A stretch of DNA of 64,000 nucleotides from Candidatus Tayloriibacteriota bacterium (lineage in GTDB: Bacteria > Patescibacteriota > Minisyncoccia > Phycocordibacterales > PALSA-1337), in the NCBI GenBank assembly GCA_037129895.1, contig JBAXUB010000003.1:2699-66698 (forward strand), written 5' to 3'. Positions 2,868-47,121 of the stretch are shown piece after piece; positions within the stretch are counted from its first letter, which is position 1; each line of letters starts with the position of its first letter. The position numbers and the translations under genes were made by a program. Below the pieces are notes generated by a model that worked only from the letters and a program-made list of their open reading frames with translations, did no database searches and was not told the DNA's origin.

Positions 2868-4157
2868 ATGTCAAAATTCCAACTAATAATCTTGTCAGTG
2901 TTCGTAGTTTGTATCATTGCTGGTGTTATCGCCTTTGCAACATTCAAGGGTAATGGTACAAGTACTGATCTACCGAGCGTTACTATTTGGGGCACGTTTC
3001 CAGCGGATATTTTTAATAAGTATGTAGTAGAAATTAACAGCACATCATCCGTTACAATGACGGTGAATTATGTAGAGAAGAAACCAGAGCAATTCTCTAC
3101 CGATTTTATAGCAGCTTTGGCGAGAGGTACTGGACCTGATGCGATCCTCATACCACTAGATATGCTGTTGCCTCATTTGGATAAGCTGACCATGATACCG
3201 TATACAGCTCTGTCACAGAGGGCATATATGGATACATATGTTCAAGAATCCAACATATATCTTACAGACAGTGGCATTATGGGCCTACCATTCGTTATAG
3301 ATCCGCTCATCATGTATTGGAATAGGGGGATGTTCAACTCGGCTGGTGTAGCAACTTATCCAAAATATTGGGATGAATTTAACACGATAATACCGAAATT
3401 GACCGTGAGAGAGAGCGATGGGAATGTTCGTAAGTCGGCTGTTGCAATGGGTGATTTTACGAATATGACGAATGCTCGCGAGCTTGTTGGTTCTATGCTA
3501 TTACAACTCAACAATCCTTTTACTGCGTATGATAGTACTGGTATAAAGACAACGATCACGAATTCCTCGGGTTCAGCACCACAATCAGTATTCAAATTCT
3601 TCACACAGTTCGTCGATCCATCTAGTCCCAATTATTCATGGAATAGAGGGATGCCCAATGACAAAACAGCTTTCTTGTCAGGTATAGGGGCTACATATTT
3701 TGGCTTTGCCTCTGAACTCAAGGATATCCGTACAAAGAATCCAAATCTCAATTTTGATGCAGCATCGTTACCACAAGTTCGAACAGGTGGTGTCAAAGCA
3801 ACATTCGGAAAGATGTATGCATTTTCATTCATGAAAAGTTCGAGTAATGTGAACACTGCTTTCCAAGTCGCTTCAACTATGACAGCACCATCATTTTTAC
3901 CTATCTTGGGGAGTATGCTGTATCTACCTTCAGTACGTAGAGATATCATCGCACGTGGTTCTACAGATCCATATATCGATGTTTTCAATAAGGCAGCACT
4001 CGTCTCCAATGGATGGCTGGATATAGAACCTATAAAGTCACGCGCTATTCTCTCAGGAATGGTTCAGAACATTACGAGCGGTAAGGTTTCGGTGAGCGAA
4101 GGTATCCAAGACATTGAGGACTTGTATAATGTTCAGTTAAGGGCTGCCACACAATAA
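2868..4157 (+). CDS. Membrane-anchored extracellular solute-binding protein (SBP family 1/MalE-like), orphan
   Basis: It has an N-terminal TM helix. 'ARGTGPDAILIPLDMLLPHLDKL' resembles the MalE 'GDGPDIIFWAHDRFGG' region. No permease or ATPase gene is adjacent. Confidence 0.4.
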   Translation: MSKFQLIILSVFVVCIIAGVIAFATFKGNGTSTDLPSVTIWGTFPADIFNKYVVEINSTSSVTMTVNYVEKKPEQFSTDFIAALARGTGPDAILIPLDMLLPHLDKLTMIPYTALSQRAYMDTYVQESNIYLTDSGIMGLPFVIDPLIMYWNRGMFNSAGVATYPKYWDEFNTIIPKLTVRESDGNVRKSAVAMGDFTNMTNARELVGSMLLQLNNPFTAYDSTGIKTTITNSSGSAPQSVFKFFTQFVDPSSPNYSWNRGMPNDKTAFLSGIGATYFGFASELKDIRTKNPNLNFDAASLPQVRTGGVKATFGKMYAFSFMKSSSNVNTAFQVASTMTAPSFLPILGSMLYLPSVRRDIIARGSTDPYIDVFNKAALVSNGWLDIEPIKSRAILSGMVQNITSGKVSVSEGIQDIEDLYNVQLRAATQ

Positions 4158-4162
4158 ATATT

Positions 4163-4606
4163 ATGAAAAATAAGATATATACGATCATATTGGCCGCCAT
4201 AGTTCTAAGCTCGTTCGCACAGTTTTCAATACTGACCGTTAGTGCAGCAAATGAGTCTGTTGATATAACAAAATCGAGTTTTCAGTTATCTATCTGTGAT
4301 GGACCGAGGCCACCAGGTGGAGGTACTAGTGGCACGGTGTATTGTGATTTTACTGGACTTATCTTGACGGTACAGCGGTTCATCAATGTCGGTATAGCCA
4401 TCGGTGTATTCGTAGCACTCGGTAGTTTCTGTTATATCGGCTATCTATATATGACTGGAACACCGGGCAATATCACCAAGGCAAAATCCATTTTCCCAAA
4501 AATCTTTTTTGGGTTTATAATAATGCTCACGGCATGGTTCATCGTTTATCAGATGCTCTCATGGCTAGGTGCCAGTTCGACCTATACTACTTTATTGGGG
4601 AAATAA
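4163..4606 (+). CDS. Small signal-peptide/2-TM protein, paralog 1 (VirB2/TrbC-pilin-like topology)
   Basis: A signal peptide is followed by two hydrophobic helices. It ends with the shared C-terminal motif 'IIMLTAWFIV', which reads '..LS.WGLVNIL' in the other paralogs. Confidence 0.4.
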   Translation: MKNKIYTIILAAIVLSSFAQFSILTVSAANESVDITKSSFQLSICDGPRPPGGGTSGTVYCDFTGLILTVQRFINVGIAIGVFVALGSFCYIGYLYMTGTPGNITKAKSIFPKIFFGFIIMLTAWFIVYQMLSWLGASSTYTTLLGK

Positions 4607-35951: not shown

Positions 35952-36305
35952 CAAAAAGCACCACGTTTCGGTGGTGCGTTTTGTTGGTGTCTGGTTACGG
36001 TTTAGAAACCGTGAGGGCGCGAACGCCCCAAACACCATTGAAAGTATACGCCAATTGGTATATGTGTCAAGAAGATGTAATAACTTGTTGCGGGGGCCGG
36101 AATCGCACCGACAATTTTCAGGTTATGAGCCTGACGGGTTACTGTTACCCTACCCCGCGATATTTTTCTAAGATTGGTCACCAACCTCACTTATCGGTCT
36201 ATTGTGCCATAAAAGGGGATTGGTTGCAAATGGTATTGTCAATGGGGTTGATTTATCGTCTTTTTTTCGCTATTGTATCTTGGTTGGGCAGGTGGGGTCA
36301 TGTTC

Positions 36306-36331
36306 GTTTGAAAATATATGTCGGCGTAGCT
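36306..36331. repeat. 26-bp direct repeat (gtttgaaaatatatgtcggcgtagct), copy A, followed by a degenerate tRNA-like 5' fragment
   Basis: It is identical to 36380-36405, which spans the upstream region and first 12 nt of tRNA-Met. Confidence 0.55.
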
Positions 36332-36393
36332 GTTGTAGTTTAGCCGGCACCAGGAGTATTGTAAGGTATGATGATATTAGTTTGAAAATATAT

Positions 36394-36467
36394 GTCGGCG
36401 TAGCTCAGGTAGTTAGAGCATAGCATTCATAAAGCTAAGGTCGAAGGTGCAAGTCCTTCCGCCGACA
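36394..36467 (+). tRNA. tRNA-Met (anticodon CAT; elongator or Ile-lysidine type)
   Basis: Acceptor GTCGGCG pairs with CGCCGAC, anticodon loop is TTCATAA, and T arm is GAAGG-TGCAAGT-CCTTC. Length is 74 nt. Confidence 0.75.
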
Positions 36468-36525
36468 CAATTCTGCATTATTAGTCCGTTGTTGTTTTAT
36501 AAAAACATTATAATATCTTTTTGAT

Positions 36526-37206
36526 ATGCCAATATTGAAATATGTAAATAAAGATTTCTTCAAATTATGGACTCCAACTATGGCTTATGTGCTGGGGTTC
36601 TTTGCTGCGGATGGGTATATGACATTGAATAAAAGGGGAGCGTACTTTTGGAATATTCAGATCACTGAGCGGGAGTTACTTCAAATGATCAAAGTGGTGA
36701 TCAATTCTCATCATAAGATAAGTGTGCGAAAAGGAAATGGTAGAGAGAAAGAGTTATATAGGTTGCAAATAGGAAGTAAAGAGATGTTTAACGATTTACA
36801 GAATCTCGGCTTTATTCCCGGAAAGACTTATAGTATGGCAGTGCCTAGTGTGCCAGCTAAGTTCTTTAGGGATTTTGTCAGGGGATATTTTGATGGTGAT
36901 GGAAATGTCTGGGTCGGGTATACTCATCGAAACAGGTGCACTAGACTTCTTACCCTATCTTCCAGCTTTACCTCATGTTCGAGGGCTTTTCTTGATGAAT
37001 TGAGATGTCGATTGAGACTATTTGGCCTAATTTCTGGTTCTGTATATACAGGAAAGGGTAAATTCTTTCGTTTGAAATATAGTGTACGTAGCTCTATGAA
37101 ATTATACGATTTCATGTATAATAGTCCACATCTGATACCAAGCAGGGATTTGTTCCTAGATCGAAAGAAGTCAGTCTTTGAAAGGTATCTGAAAATGCGC
37201 CCGTAG
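36526..37206 (+). CDS. LAGLIDADG homing endonuclease (double-motif, freestanding)
   Basis: It carries two LAGLIDADG motifs, 'LGFFAADGYM' and 'RGYFDGDGNVW'. The 3' end overlaps tRNA-Asp by 10 nt. Confidence 0.8.
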   Translation: MPILKYVNKDFFKLWTPTMAYVLGFFAADGYMTLNKRGAYFWNIQITERELLQMIKVVINSHHKISVRKGNGREKELYRLQIGSKEMFNDLQNLGFIPGKTYSMAVPSVPAKFFRDFVRGYFDGDGNVWVGYTHRNRCTRLLTLSSSFTSCSRAFLDELRCRLRLFGLISGSVYTGKGKFFRLKYSVRSSMKLYDFMYNSPHLIPSRDLFLDRKKSVFERYLKMRP

Positions 37207-37270
37207 TTTAGCTGGCTAAAACAATCCCCTGTCACGGGATAGACCGTGGGTTCGAGTCCCATCGGGCGCG
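37197..37270 (+). tRNA. tRNA-Asp (anticodon GTC)
   Basis: Acceptor GCGCCCG pairs with CGGGCGC, anticodon arm is ATCCC-CTGTCAC-GGGAT, and T arm is GTGGG-TTCGAGT-CCCAT. Confidence 0.85.
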
Positions 37271-37362
37271 CATAGATTTGAGATCAATAGGTAAGCCACA
37301 GAAAGTTCACGGGTCTAGAGGACTTGAGCTGTGGTATAATTTTTGTATAGAATTTGGATTAT
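37271..37362 (+). repeat. ~90-bp direct repeat copy 1 carrying an extended -10 promoter (TGGTATAAT at 37332-37340)
   Basis: It is near-identical to 42820-42917. It sits immediately 3' of tRNA-Asp and ends at the glycosyltransferase ATG. Confidence 0.65.
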
Positions 37363-45432: not shown

Positions 45433-46062
45433 ATGAAAAGACCAAGTCTACCACAGTCACAGGATTTGCCTATTATCTCAAGGGACCAGCTGCATGACTT
45501 ATATATTACGTGTCGTCAATCAGTTTCTGCAATCGCTATTTTGTTAAAATGTTCTCAGAATAGAATTAACTACTGGCTGGCAAAATATCATATACCAAAA
45601 AGGACTATTTCCGAGGCAATTTATCAGTTAAGAAATCCTAAGGGTGATCCGTTTCTATATAAACCACCGGATAGTTTAGAGACAGCAGTATTGTTTGGAA
45701 TGGGACTCGGGTTATATTGGGGTGAAGGCTCAAAACGTGGGACGGGTGGTGTTAGATTGACTAATACAGATCCGAGATTGCTAAGAAAATTCATTGAGTT
45801 TTTACAAGTATCATTCAACATTGATAGGTTTAAGTTGAGATTTGGCCTCCAAATATTCGATGATCTTTCGAAAGTTAAGACTTTGTCATATTGGACTCGC
45901 GAACTCGGAGTCAGCAGAAAACAGTTTTATAAGATTATTGTTTCAAAGATTCGCGGTAAAGGAACATATAAGATTAAGTCTGCAAATGGTGTGATAATTG
46001 TATATTTCAATAATATCAAACTGAAGAGACAGATCTGTGCCATGATTGATAATATCAGATAA
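45433..46062 (+). CDS. HTH-containing protein with a possible degenerate single LAGLIDADG-like motif
   Basis: It has an N-terminal HTH-like segment and 'FGMGLGLYWGEGSKRGTGGVRL', which is LAGLIDADG-like and resembles the single-motif family. The call is weak. Confidence 0.25.
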   Translation: MKRPSLPQSQDLPIISRDQLHDLYITCRQSVSAIAILLKCSQNRINYWLAKYHIPKRTISEAIYQLRNPKGDPFLYKPPDSLETAVLFGMGLGLYWGEGSKRGTGGVRLTNTDPRLLRKFIEFLQVSFNIDRFKLRFGLQIFDDLSKVKTLSYWTRELGVSRKQFYKIIVSKIRGKGTYKIKSANGVIIVYFNNIKLKRQICAMIDNIR

Positions 46063-46144
46063 ATAGTTTATTCTTACAGAGCTGCAAGGATGCCGATGCA
46101 GGTGTCTTGGTAGTTAAACCAGAAATGGTAATTTTGAAAATATA

Positions 46145-46424
46145 ATATAGTTATGCCGATGTAGCTCAGTTGGTAGAGCACGCCATTGGTAGGTCGTAAG
46201 ACCCTGCCCATATATGAGGTAACTCGTATATGAATCCCGAATTACGGTTAAAGTCCACAGAACATATTATTGCGGATAAGACCGTGGCGCTTCAAGTAGA
46301 TGCGCCCGAACGACTGACAAGGGTTTCCATTGTTCGAATGGAAAAAGATACAGTCTAGTCCTTGCTGTAAAGTGAGGTGTAAACGAATGGCGAGGTCTCC
46401 GGTTCAATCCCGGACGTCGGCTCC
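46145..46424 (+). tRNA. tRNA-Thr (anticodon GGT) interrupted by a 204-nt group I intron in the anticodon loop (exons 46145-46180 and 46385-46421, plus encoded CCA to 46424)
   Basis: The 5' half is GCCGATG-TA-GCTC...GAGC-A-CGCCA-TTGGT. The 3' half is AA-TGGCG-AGGTC-TCCGG-TTCAATC-CCGGA-CGTCGGC-T-CCA. The halves pair only if 46181-46384 is removed. Confidence 0.7.
46181..46384 (+). ncRNA. Group I intron (self-splicing intron candidate) in tRNA-Thr
   Basis: It inserts after U36, the intron ends in G, and it contains a P-element-like 'ttattgcggataag', an R-like 'acgactgacaa' and an S-element-like 'aagatacagtctagtcc'. There is no internal ORF. Confidence 0.6.
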
Positions 46425-46471
46425 AATTCCTCATGTGGATTCTCTATCCACATTGTCGTATACTAGACACC

Positions 46472-47045: not shown

Positions 47046-47121
47046 GCCGATGTAGCTCAGTTGGTAGAGCGCCACTTTCGTAAAGTGGATGTCCCCGGTT
47101 CGATTCCGGGCATCGGCTCCA
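47046..47121 (+). tRNA. tRNA-Thr (anticodon CGT), CCA encoded
   Basis: Same 5' half as tRNA-Thr(GGT), anticodon arm CCACT-TTCGTAA-AGTGG, T arm CCCGG-TTCGATT-CCGGG. Confidence 0.85.

Follow-up and report, generated by a model that had tools for sequence, protein, structure and literature searches.

Group I introns between positions 36 and 37 of tRNA-Thr(GGU) have been described in 3 of 95 complete genomes of Patescibacteria (GCA_001029635.1, GCA_016700375.1 and GCA_030583745.1; Nakagawa et al., 2026, PMC13011429), and the class was also reported in the work that presented tFind and introduced a bacterial tRNA intron model (Williams, 2020, bioRxiv 10.1101/2020.01.27.920355). The published Thr introns were found with tFind and given as 'not detected' with the Rfam model RF00028, two of them are called Arg(GCG) 34/35 by ARAGORN, and they were placed on long branches within subgroup IA (PMC13011429); that article equates them with the introns that Castelle et al. 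(2018) had termed 'divergent group I introns'. The seed of RF00028 is reported to be without bacterial sequences (Williams, 2020). Here we analyse a tRNA-Thr(GGT) gene split by such an intron at positions 46155–46425 of a 64,000-nucleotide (nt) stretch from a Candidatus Tayloriibacteriota bacterium (contig JBAXUB010000003.1; hereafter, the window), and the open reading frame (ORF) that precedes it. We put at about 0.9 the probability that this is a tRNA-Thr(GGU) gene with a 195-nt, ORF-less group I intron of the known class and with a homing-endonuclease-like ORF adjacent to it.

Small ORF-less introns also interrupt the anticodon loop, after U36, of tRNA-Ile(CAU) from Azoarcus sp. BH72 and tRNA-Arg(CCU) from Agrobacterium (subgroup IC3; Reinhold-Hurek and Shub, 1992, as cited in PMC13011429). 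In phages, introns without an ORF can be paired with an endonuclease gene situated just outside the interrupted gene, an arrangement known as collaborative homing and exemplified by psbA with F-CphI in cyanophage S-PM2 and by mobE with I-TevIII in T4 (PMC3984707; PMC2790892; PMC6083498), and the free-standing GIY-YIG homing endonuclease SegB of T4 is encoded in a tRNA gene cluster and cuts within it (PMC2330249). For Patescibacteria, Nakagawa et al. sought genes for endonucleases only within introns of more than 500 bp and concluded that most tRNA introns are devoid of them and that transfer is limited (PMC13011429); because of the scope of that search, the ORF upstream of the tRNA gene went unreported.

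When introns were allowed, ARAGORN called the split gene in the window (Table 1), and the two exons, GCCGATGTAGCTCAGTTGGTAGAGCACGCCATTGGT (46155–46190) and AATGGCGAGGTCTCCGGTTCAATCCCGGACGTCGGCTCCA (46386–46425, of which 46386–46422 are the 3′ exon proper and 46423–46425 encode CCA), join into a canonical 76-nt cloverleaf tRNA-Thr(GGT). The split gene is therefore real, as an earlier note on this DNA had proposed, even though ARAGORN with default settings and Rfam at the gathering score reported only six other tRNAs in the window and missed it. Its limits had to be corrected, since the note had put the 5′ half at 46145–46180 (10 nt off) and the 3′ half at 46385–46421, and had counted 204 nt for an intron that ARAGORN and the sequence agree is 195 nt long. 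The insertion point between U36 and A37 was correctly chosen: an A at both junctions leaves an ambiguity of one base, and a U at position −1 together with a G at the intron end, which the note had pointed out, is obtained only if the boundary falls after U36, so that the intron ends at G46385.

The host tRNA-Thr(GGU), the 36/37 insertion and the Patescibacteria genome make the window intron a member of the published 'divergent group I intron' class, with which it also shares a similar size range and the same tool behaviour: RF00028 misses the introns and ARAGORN gives either Thr(GGU) 36/37 or, wrongly, Arg(GCG) 34/35. Nothing essential differs in the intron itself, which is of a kind already known and hence of modest novelty, and the remark in the earlier note that a tRNA-Thr(GGT) intron this small would be unusual is outdated by Table 1 of PMC13011429, by Williams (2020) and, as cited there, by Castelle et al. 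(2018). What we add is a structure supported by covariation, which the published report does not contain, and smaller members, because the published sizes start at 184 nt and ours at 169 nt.

The secondary structure was drawn by hand, guided by the minimum free energy (MFE) fold (−63 kcal/mol, z = −4.65; none of 200 shuffles folded as well), which recovers P1, P2 and P4–P9. In P1, exon nucleotides G34 G35 U36 (46188–46190) pair with the internal guide G C C (46206–46208), forming the U36 (46190)·G46206 wobble at the splice site, and intron positions 46191–46195 pair above them with 46200–46203 and 46205 (strands: exon GGU plus intron AGGUC against GACC-C-UGCC). The structure has these hallmarks of group I introns: the U·G pair at the 5′ splice site, a terminal G, and a core formed by P3–P8 with the P3/P7 pseudoknot, P4–P6, J8/7 and P9.0; P7 is presumed to be the G-binding helix. 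Of the core elements read from the letters in the earlier note, the 'R-like' acgacugacaa corresponds to J6/7–P7(5′)–J7/3 and the 'S-like' aagauacagucuaguc to J8/7–P7(3′)–J7/9; the 'P-like' uuauugcggauaag was misplaced, for it represents L5/P5(3′)/J5/4 and P4 is formed by ACGGU and ACCGU. The note had also suggested a search with the Rfam Intron_gpI model. In a permissive local search the alignment covered P1 and the J8/7–P7–P9 blocks (E = 0.0067 over 451 nt), with the J8/7–P7 3′ block matching the consensus AAGAUAUAGUC, but scored only 20 bits, the gathering score being 50.

The decisive evidence comes from homologous introns. We collected 61 introns from the same insertion site, of 169–229 nt and all with U at −1 and omega-G, in a plain, structure-blind MAFFT alignment (A2), and used as controls the same pairs with their 3′ partners slid by 1–3 columns. 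Paired cells amounted to 90.1 % (30.7–43.8 % in the slid controls), the covariation score was 0.424 (0.07–0.12 in the controls), and 39 of the 57 pairs showed double-sided changes; none of 500 shuffles reached the observed values, and a model-fitted alignment agreed with this (91.3 % paired cells; 37 of 52 pairs). Double-sided changes occurred in 9/10 pairs of P2, 3/4 of P5, 4/5 of P6 (96 % of cells paired), 6/7 of P9 and in all five basal pairs of P8; in P3, 98.9 % of cells were paired and two of the three pairs changed from CG to UA. The upper pairs of P1 covary in A2, and its basal pairs are GC, GC and UG in each of 60 distinct homologues. P4 and P7 were paired in 100 % of cells and invariant (P7 in 60 sequences), and P9.0 was likewise 100 % paired through four Watson-Crick combinations and one wobble (GC/GC, 21; GU/AC, 20; AU/AU, 10; AC/GU, 7; and GU/GC, 3).

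A covariance model built from A2, R1, matches the window once (46183–46393, 181 bits, E = 1e-55), which is a covariance-model hit of the kind whose lack, together with that of spliced RNA, the earlier note would have taken as a refutation. Split genes with U at −1, omega-G and the covarying fold occur in over 60 genomes at the species level and in over 100 contigs from metagenomes, and every intron-bearing locus inspected reads NNTGGT, an intron ending in G, and AA; the ARAGORN call for them is often a mistaken Arg(gcg) i35 or His(gtg) i35. With a complete group I structure, the U·G splice-site pair, the terminal G and strong compensatory covariation, the group I reading first made from the sequence is supported. 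Comparison establishes the assignment, from which we infer that the RNA is catalytic.

Table 1. Coordinates of the split tRNA-Thr(GGT) gene, of its intron and of the adjacent ORF in the window, and of members of sister ORF subfamilies in other loci.
Feature	Coordinates or loci	Strand	Basis and remarks
tRNA-Thr(GGT), whole split gene	46155–46425	+	Sequence; ARAGORN, introns allowed: tRNA-Thr [46155,46425] (ggt) i(37,195)
5′ exon: 5′ strands of the acceptor and anticodon stems, D arm, anticodon loop up to U36	46155–46190	+	
3′ exon and CCA: A37, A38, 3′ strands of the anticodon and acceptor stems, variable loop, T arm, discriminator U, CCA	46386–46425	+	Sequence; ARAGORN with introns
Group I intron, 195 nt, no ORF inside	46191–46385	+	ARAGORN i(37,195); Rfam Intron_gpI, 20 bits; fold z; model R1; covariation
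P1 hairpin, loop GUAA	46188–46208	+	Sequence; pair counts in homologues
P2, 10 bp, GUAA (GNRA) loop	46209–46232	+	MFE fold; covariation
P3, 5′ strand CCC	46236–46238	+	Pairs with GGG 46321–46323; pseudoknot with P7
P4 enclosing P5	46244–46285	+	P4, ACGGU 46244–46248 with ACCGU 46281–46285; P5, 46253–46256 with 46274–46277
P6 hairpin GGCGC/GCGCC	46286–46306	+	Covariation
P7, 5′ strand GACUG	46312–46316	+	Pairs with CAGUC 46351–46355; inside block aligned to Rfam core
P3, 3′ strand GGG	46321–46323	+	
P8 hairpin UUUCCAUU / AAUGGAAA	46324–46344	+	MFE fold; covariation
J8/7 AAGAUA, then P7 3′ strand CAGUC	46345–46355	+	Invariant block AAGATACAGTCTA in alignment A2
J7/9 dinucleotide GU	46358–46359	+	P9.0 with A46383 and C46384, two bases before omega-G
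P9 hairpin, GUAA loop	46360–46377	+	MFE fold; covariation
Omega-G, last intron nucleotide	46385	+	G in 61/61 homologous introns
Free-standing ORF of 209 aa, with the tRNA gene 92 nt downstream	45433–46062	+	N-terminal helix-turn-helix and single LAGLIDADG-like core
Sister subfamily, Tyr(GTA) type	L133 (574–1224), L150, L172, L201		
Sister subfamily, Met(CAT) type	L059 (808–1488), L127, L202		
Sister subfamily, Trp(CCA) type	L048 (2785–3465), L140		
Sister subfamily, Thr(TGT) type	L123, L168 (295–939)		

By analogy with other group I introns, the window intron, once transcribed, would be spliced in two steps. An exogenous guanosine that P7 binds would attack the phosphate after U36; omega-G, positioned by P9.0, would then replace the guanosine, and the free 3′-OH of U36 would attack the bond after omega-G, ligating the anticodon loop. 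The anticodon stem would hold both exons together, as in other tRNA introns. By eye, the architecture, without P7.1/P7.2 and with GNRA loops L2 and L9, looks Azoarcus-like, and the Azoarcus and Agrobacterium introns share with it the minimal P1–P9, the GNRA loops on P2 and P9 and the lack of peripheral domains. Those introns reside in different tRNAs, and the window intron is shorter (195 nt, down to 169 nt in relatives) than the Azoarcus intron, which has about 205 nt. Additionally, Nakagawa et al. placed the Thr introns with subgroup IA, and not with IC as that of Azoarcus.

In introns with an extended P1, the L1 loop contains a C followed by the same dinucleotide as J7/9 (CGU, CGC, CAC or CAU), and these triplets are matched to intron 3′ ends ACG, GCG, GUG and AUG, respectively; pairing between L1 and the 3′ end holds in 92.6 % of cells, compared with 6–36 % when the partners are slid. 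This pattern suggests a contact between L1 and the 3′ end, alternative or additional to P9.0, which could sequester or deliver the 3′ splice site, although lineage effects may contribute to it. We know of no description of such a three-way covariation at a 3′ splice site.

Introns related to R1 (50–140 bits) were also observed outside tRNA genes, in contigs labelled as viral in IMG/VR: L093 (= L102, L110) and also L083–L101. Three copies in L093 (6272–6473, 6738–6943 and 7561–7756) interrupt a single long frame of more than 300 aa that is restored across two of the junctions, which extends the intron family to phage protein-coding genes; the interrupted protein had no match in Pfam or PHROGs. 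ARAGORN calls other intron-bearing tRNAs in contigs that contain the ORF, comprising tRNA-Asp(GTC) interrupted by 213 nt and by 221 nt, 'Leu(cag)' with a 267-nt insert, and 'Ser(tga)' with a 187-nt insert, directly after an ORF of the Tyr type and probably a split tRNA-Tyr (loci of these calls: L013, 721–1008, minus strand; L202, 4073–4368; L149, 9694–10032; and L201, 766–1036). A weak second match to R1 (28 bits) lies at 1926–2142 of L020.

The product of the ORF preceding the tRNA gene contains the LAGLIDADG-like motif GLGLYWGEGSK; an identical protein is present in a Candidatus Taylorbacteria metagenome-assembled genome (MAG), and 498 homologues were found. A family alignment of 26 diverse members (A1) has 38 invariant columns and a mean column identity of 54 %, the invariant residues including S41, Y47 and W48 in the N-terminal helix-turn-helix (HTH) and W96, G97, E98, G99 and K101 in GLGLYWGEGxK. 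The Glu of the motif is present in all 82 loci compared below, and the motif helix ends in an acidic residue followed by Gly, as LAGLIDADG requires. Comparison of the window with its close relative L001 gives a dN/dS of 0.085 for the ORF, which indicates purifying selection.

Pfam returned sub-threshold matches of the ORF to HTH_23 and LAGLIDADG_3, the latter matching 7 of the 26 family members (best E = 0.0012). In PHROGs, the N-terminal 50 residues match phage 'HNH endonuclease' families, and this match is to a shared DNA-binding module and not to the HNH core. The AlphaFold model (predicted local distance difference test, pLDDT, 86) shows an extra helix between strands; a profile search of PDB sequences and an NCBIfam search, both with the ORF, gave no match. 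Taking together the PHROGs matches, the sub-threshold Pfam matches and a Foldseek comparison that was not significant, we therefore consider the protein LAGLIDADG-like with moderate confidence. The weak LAGLIDADG-like motif perceived in the earlier note is real and stays below the Pfam cut-off; calling it a weak motif fell short, because it belongs to a conserved family that flanks tRNA genes.

The association of the ORF with its tRNA was examined in species-representative genomes, where an ORF profile identified 547 encoding stretches of all subfamilies; the best 80 of these, the window and L001 make up the 82 loci. The relatives are all MAGs of Patescibacteria save a few that are probably mis-binned. 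The ORF adjoins tRNA-Thr(GGT) in 81 of them: 63 have an intron-bearing gene 0–160 nt downstream on the same strand, one (L024) has it upstream of the ORF, and 17 have an intron-less gene downstream. The contig ends too early to tell in the remaining locus, hence an intron is present in 64 of the 81 that could be assessed. In L024 the order is tRNA-Thr(GGT) (2676–2937), ORF (3001–3582) and tRNA-Thr(CGT), and in L199 an ORF on the minus strand (3831–4442) lies upstream of an intron-bearing tRNA on the opposite strand (at 4538, plus).

From the side of the intron, a scan of metagenomes with the exact pattern of the invariant core (CGAACGACTGMCAA...ATACAGTCTA) yielded at least 120 contigs and, among the matches listed, nearly all are tRNA-Thr(GGT) with an intron at 36/37. 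About 92 distinct cases among those listed had at least 750 nt of upstream sequence, and around 43 of them carry the ORF or a remnant of it (about 30 full adjacent ORFs, 9 fragments or divergent copies, and 4 ORFs cut by the contig end). The ORF is thus almost always found with tRNA-Thr(GGT), usually intron-bearing, and the intron often occurs without the ORF. A greater structural elaboration of introns without an ORF, to be expected if splicing depended on a maturase, was considered and set aside, their median length of 196 nt, compared with 192 nt for those with an ORF, being unconvincing (p = 0.04).

In these loci, the ORF profile also has weaker matches, to paralogues that share the architecture of the ORF; 18 of 20 lie directly upstream of a tRNA, compared with 76 of 1,350 other ORFs (5.6 %). 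They form subfamilies (Table 1) situated 0–40 nt upstream of their tRNA genes, which are mostly intron-less. A search with a Tyr-type member gave 504 homologues, five of which were looked up (among L223–L231). In four of them, the tRNA-Tyr(GTA) called by ARAGORN starts 4–10 nt after the stop codon or just overlaps it, and they come from two unrelated neighbourhoods (after trmD and after clpB); the fifth (P0329, L229) had no ARAGORN call, and by eye is followed by a tRNA-Tyr(GTA) with the anticodon loop CTGTAAA. Every subfamily is therefore tied to a single tRNA species, at its 5′ flank. No mention of the upstream ORF was found in the papers searched and, as far as we found, both a LAGLIDADG-like gene family flanking tRNA genes and the three-way covariation at the 3′ splice site are undescribed.

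In the close relative L001 the ORF is likewise present and the intron measures 199 nt; the slightly more distant L002 (kinase 86 % identical) has neither, with an intron-less tRNA-Thr(GGT) at the syntenic site and only the last ca. 20 nt of the ORF. The intron-less tRNA of L002 equals the joined exons of the window, including a 100 % identical 5′ exon, and the exons are 100 % conserved among the window, L001 and L002. C-terminal remnants of the ORF adjoin the tRNA in L072, L108, L114, L132, L183 and L216 as well as in L002. Between the window and L001, synonymous divergence was 1.69 in the ORF, compared with 1.07 in the kinase and 0.36 in TspO; these values are saturated and noisy and only hint at a separate history of the ORF.

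Conservation of the exons was also compared with that of the neighbouring tRNA-Thr(CGT) in the same genomes. Outside the anticodon arm, the exon bodies of 27 intron-bearing genes were 87.2 % identical, compared with 79.5 % for tRNA-Thr(CGT), and they were more uniform in 27 of 27 genomes (e.g., 46155–46425 versus 47046–47121 in the window); comparison of intron-bearing with intron-less genes gave the reverse relation (73.7 % versus 78.3 %), with an intron-less control of four genomes. This uniformity could result from co-conversion during homing or from different rates of the two tRNAs.

In many relatives (e.g., L005, L006, L021–L023, L029 and L031), a tRNA-Met, tRNA-Met, tRNA-Asp cluster lies 0.5–1.5 kb upstream of the ORF; the same cluster in the window (36087–37271) is 8.2 kb from the ORF at 45433, with genes for a nucleotidyltransferase, a PemK/MazF-domain protein and TspO among those in between, and the gap looks like an insertion or rearrangement. 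A promoter and terminator scan of the locus performed no better than on shuffles, and a TATAAT at 46141–46146 is not conserved in L001.

Locus specificity, presence/absence polymorphism, decay products and endonuclease-type modules together form the pattern of free-standing homing endonucleases, and this comparison of sequences lends moderate support to the ORF being a homing-endonuclease-like gene specific for the tRNA-Thr(GGU) locus. The ORF is outside the intron and is not needed to explain splicing; it probably mobilises itself, and possibly the adjacent intron, by cutting alleles that lack the ORF. As in phage collaborative homing, the intron has no ORF and an endonuclease-like gene lies immediately beyond the gene that is split, both are jointly present (window, L001) or absent (L002), and decayed copies of the ORF occur. 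The differences are that here the hosts are cellular bacteria and a tRNA gene is interrupted, that the protein is LAGLIDADG-like and those of the phages are HNH or EndoVII-like, and that the 17 of 82 loci with an ORF and an intron-less gene are not predicted by a simple collaborative homing model. With SegB the ORF shares a free-standing endonuclease-type gene among tRNA genes, which serve as conserved landing sites; SegB belongs to another nuclease family and to a phage and not to a bacterial chromosome, and in Patescibacteria there are entire subfamilies, each attached to a single tRNA species, 0–40 nt from its 5′ end.

Single-motif LAGLIDADG enzymes act as homodimers on near-palindromic sites. 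The anticodon stem-loop would be a near-palindromic site suited to a homodimeric enzyme, with the intron in its centre. A broader and tentative proposal, which we consider possible, is that these genes constitute an undescribed superfamily of free-standing, single-motif LAGLIDADG-type homing endonucleases of Patescibacteria, with each subfamily specialised on, and located just 5′ of, Thr(GGU), Tyr(GUA), Met(CAU), Trp(CCA) or Thr(UGU), and that at Thr(GGU) the endonuclease and the intron form a collaborative-homing pair, the palindromic anticodon stem-loop being the cleavage site that the intron interrupts.

Several observations limit or weigh against the reading as an intron with a homing-endonuclease-like neighbour. 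On the RNA side, the gathering score of RF00028 (Intron_gpI) is not reached, P3 has just 3 bp, P4 and P7 never vary and thus contribute no covariation evidence, and splicing has been assayed for Asn and Asp introns only (PMC13011429). As for the protein, LAGLIDADG_3 scores 17.4 bits, below its cut-off of 22.5, and Foldseek with the ORF model against PDB gave no match with E < 0.001, only weak ones to IspF and OmpA-like proteins. With regard to the linkage, about 49 of the ca. 92 intron-bearing genes counted among the metagenome matches listed have no ORF nearby, all 17 ORFs beside an intron-less tRNA-Thr(GGT) keep an intact WGEGxK, and 3 of the 17 intron-less genes have anticodon stems identical to those of intron-bearing alleles. 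Intact ORFs beside intron-less genes contradict a simple model in which the intron protects against self-cleavage; that such ORFs might have lost the catalytic Glu was rejected, as E is present in 17 of 17.

The silence of default tRNA finders and of Rfam at gathering thresholds, together with the 20 bits of Intron_gpI, is what would be seen if the 5′ half were a pseudo-tRNA, the 3′ half a chance match and the 195 nt an ordinary unremoved spacer; comparative data effectively refute this, because the split gene with its covarying fold recurs across the species-level genomes and metagenome contigs counted above, and exons that are fully conserved in L001 and L002 join into a perfect cloverleaf, so that we give it practically no credence. 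The small size of the introns (169–229 nt) and the 3-bp P3 could also mean that the intron is too reduced to splice alone and that the LAGLIDADG-like protein is mainly a maturase and not a DNA endonuclease, as would suit an ORF that is co-oriented and adjacent in 63 of the 82 loci and strongly constrained by purifying selection (dN/dS = 0.085). Maturases of the LAGLIDADG type form an established class, and some organellar LAGLIDADG proteins act in this way. Protein-assisted splicing was reviewed by Hausner et al. (PMC3984707). Such a role is nevertheless improbable considering that around half of the intron-bearing genes counted lack the ORF, with introns that are not longer or obviously more elaborate, that 17 ORFs accompany an intron-less tRNA-Thr(GGT), that sister subfamilies accompany genes for tRNA-Tyr, Met, Trp and Thr(UGU) that have no intron, and that the N-terminal module is similar to those with which phage endonucleases bind DNA; the pattern of one subfamily per tRNA, mostly intron-less, favours a selfish or DNA-binding element that targets tRNA genes over an intron-specific maturase.

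A DNA-binding element need not cut, and the ORF might encode a domesticated LAGLIDADG and HTH protein for which catalysis is irrelevant, for example a vertically inherited regulator of the tRNA gene downstream, its co-occurrence with the intron reflecting shared ancestry. The model for it is WhiA, a bacterial transcription factor with two degenerate LAGLIDADG domains and a C-terminal HTH that has lost the catalytic acidic residues. The strong conservation of the ORF (54 % mean column identity, 38 invariant columns and the low dN/dS), its persistence with an intact motif beside intron-less tRNAs and the conserved synteny with the tRNA cluster are all compatible with this role. Unlike WhiA, the ORF protein has one domain, an N-terminal HTH and an invariant Glu, with E in 82 of 82 loci. 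Presence/absence polymorphism among close relatives (present in the window and L001, and reduced to the last ca. 20 nt in L002), C-terminal remnants in at least 7 loci, a decay pattern typical of homing endonuclease genes, and the attachment of subfamilies to different tRNA genes in unrelated neighbourhoods (after trmD, after clpB) also speak against domestication. We regard it as rather unlikely; with WGEGxK kept in 17 of 17 ORFs and three identical anticodon stems, it therefore stays a serious rival to the homing-endonuclease-like gene that we prefer.

The intron class has practical consequences: annotation pipelines miss it, so that tRNA-Thr(GGU) looks 'absent' and completeness estimates are distorted. 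The family of the window intron is among the smallest natural group I introns (169–229 nt; 195 nt here), and its covariation-supported structure with a clean P9.0 makes its members attractive minimal ribozymes. If the tentative superfamily of endonucleases proposed above exists, it would account for the persistence and spread of 'endonuclease-less' tRNA introns in these reduced genomes, and also for exon bodies of intron-bearing genes that are more uniform than the neighbouring tRNA. An active ORF would change the published view of Patescibacteria tRNA introns as mostly endonuclease-less and hardly mobile, and would extend the landing sites known for free-standing homing endonucleases to tRNA genes in cellular bacteria.

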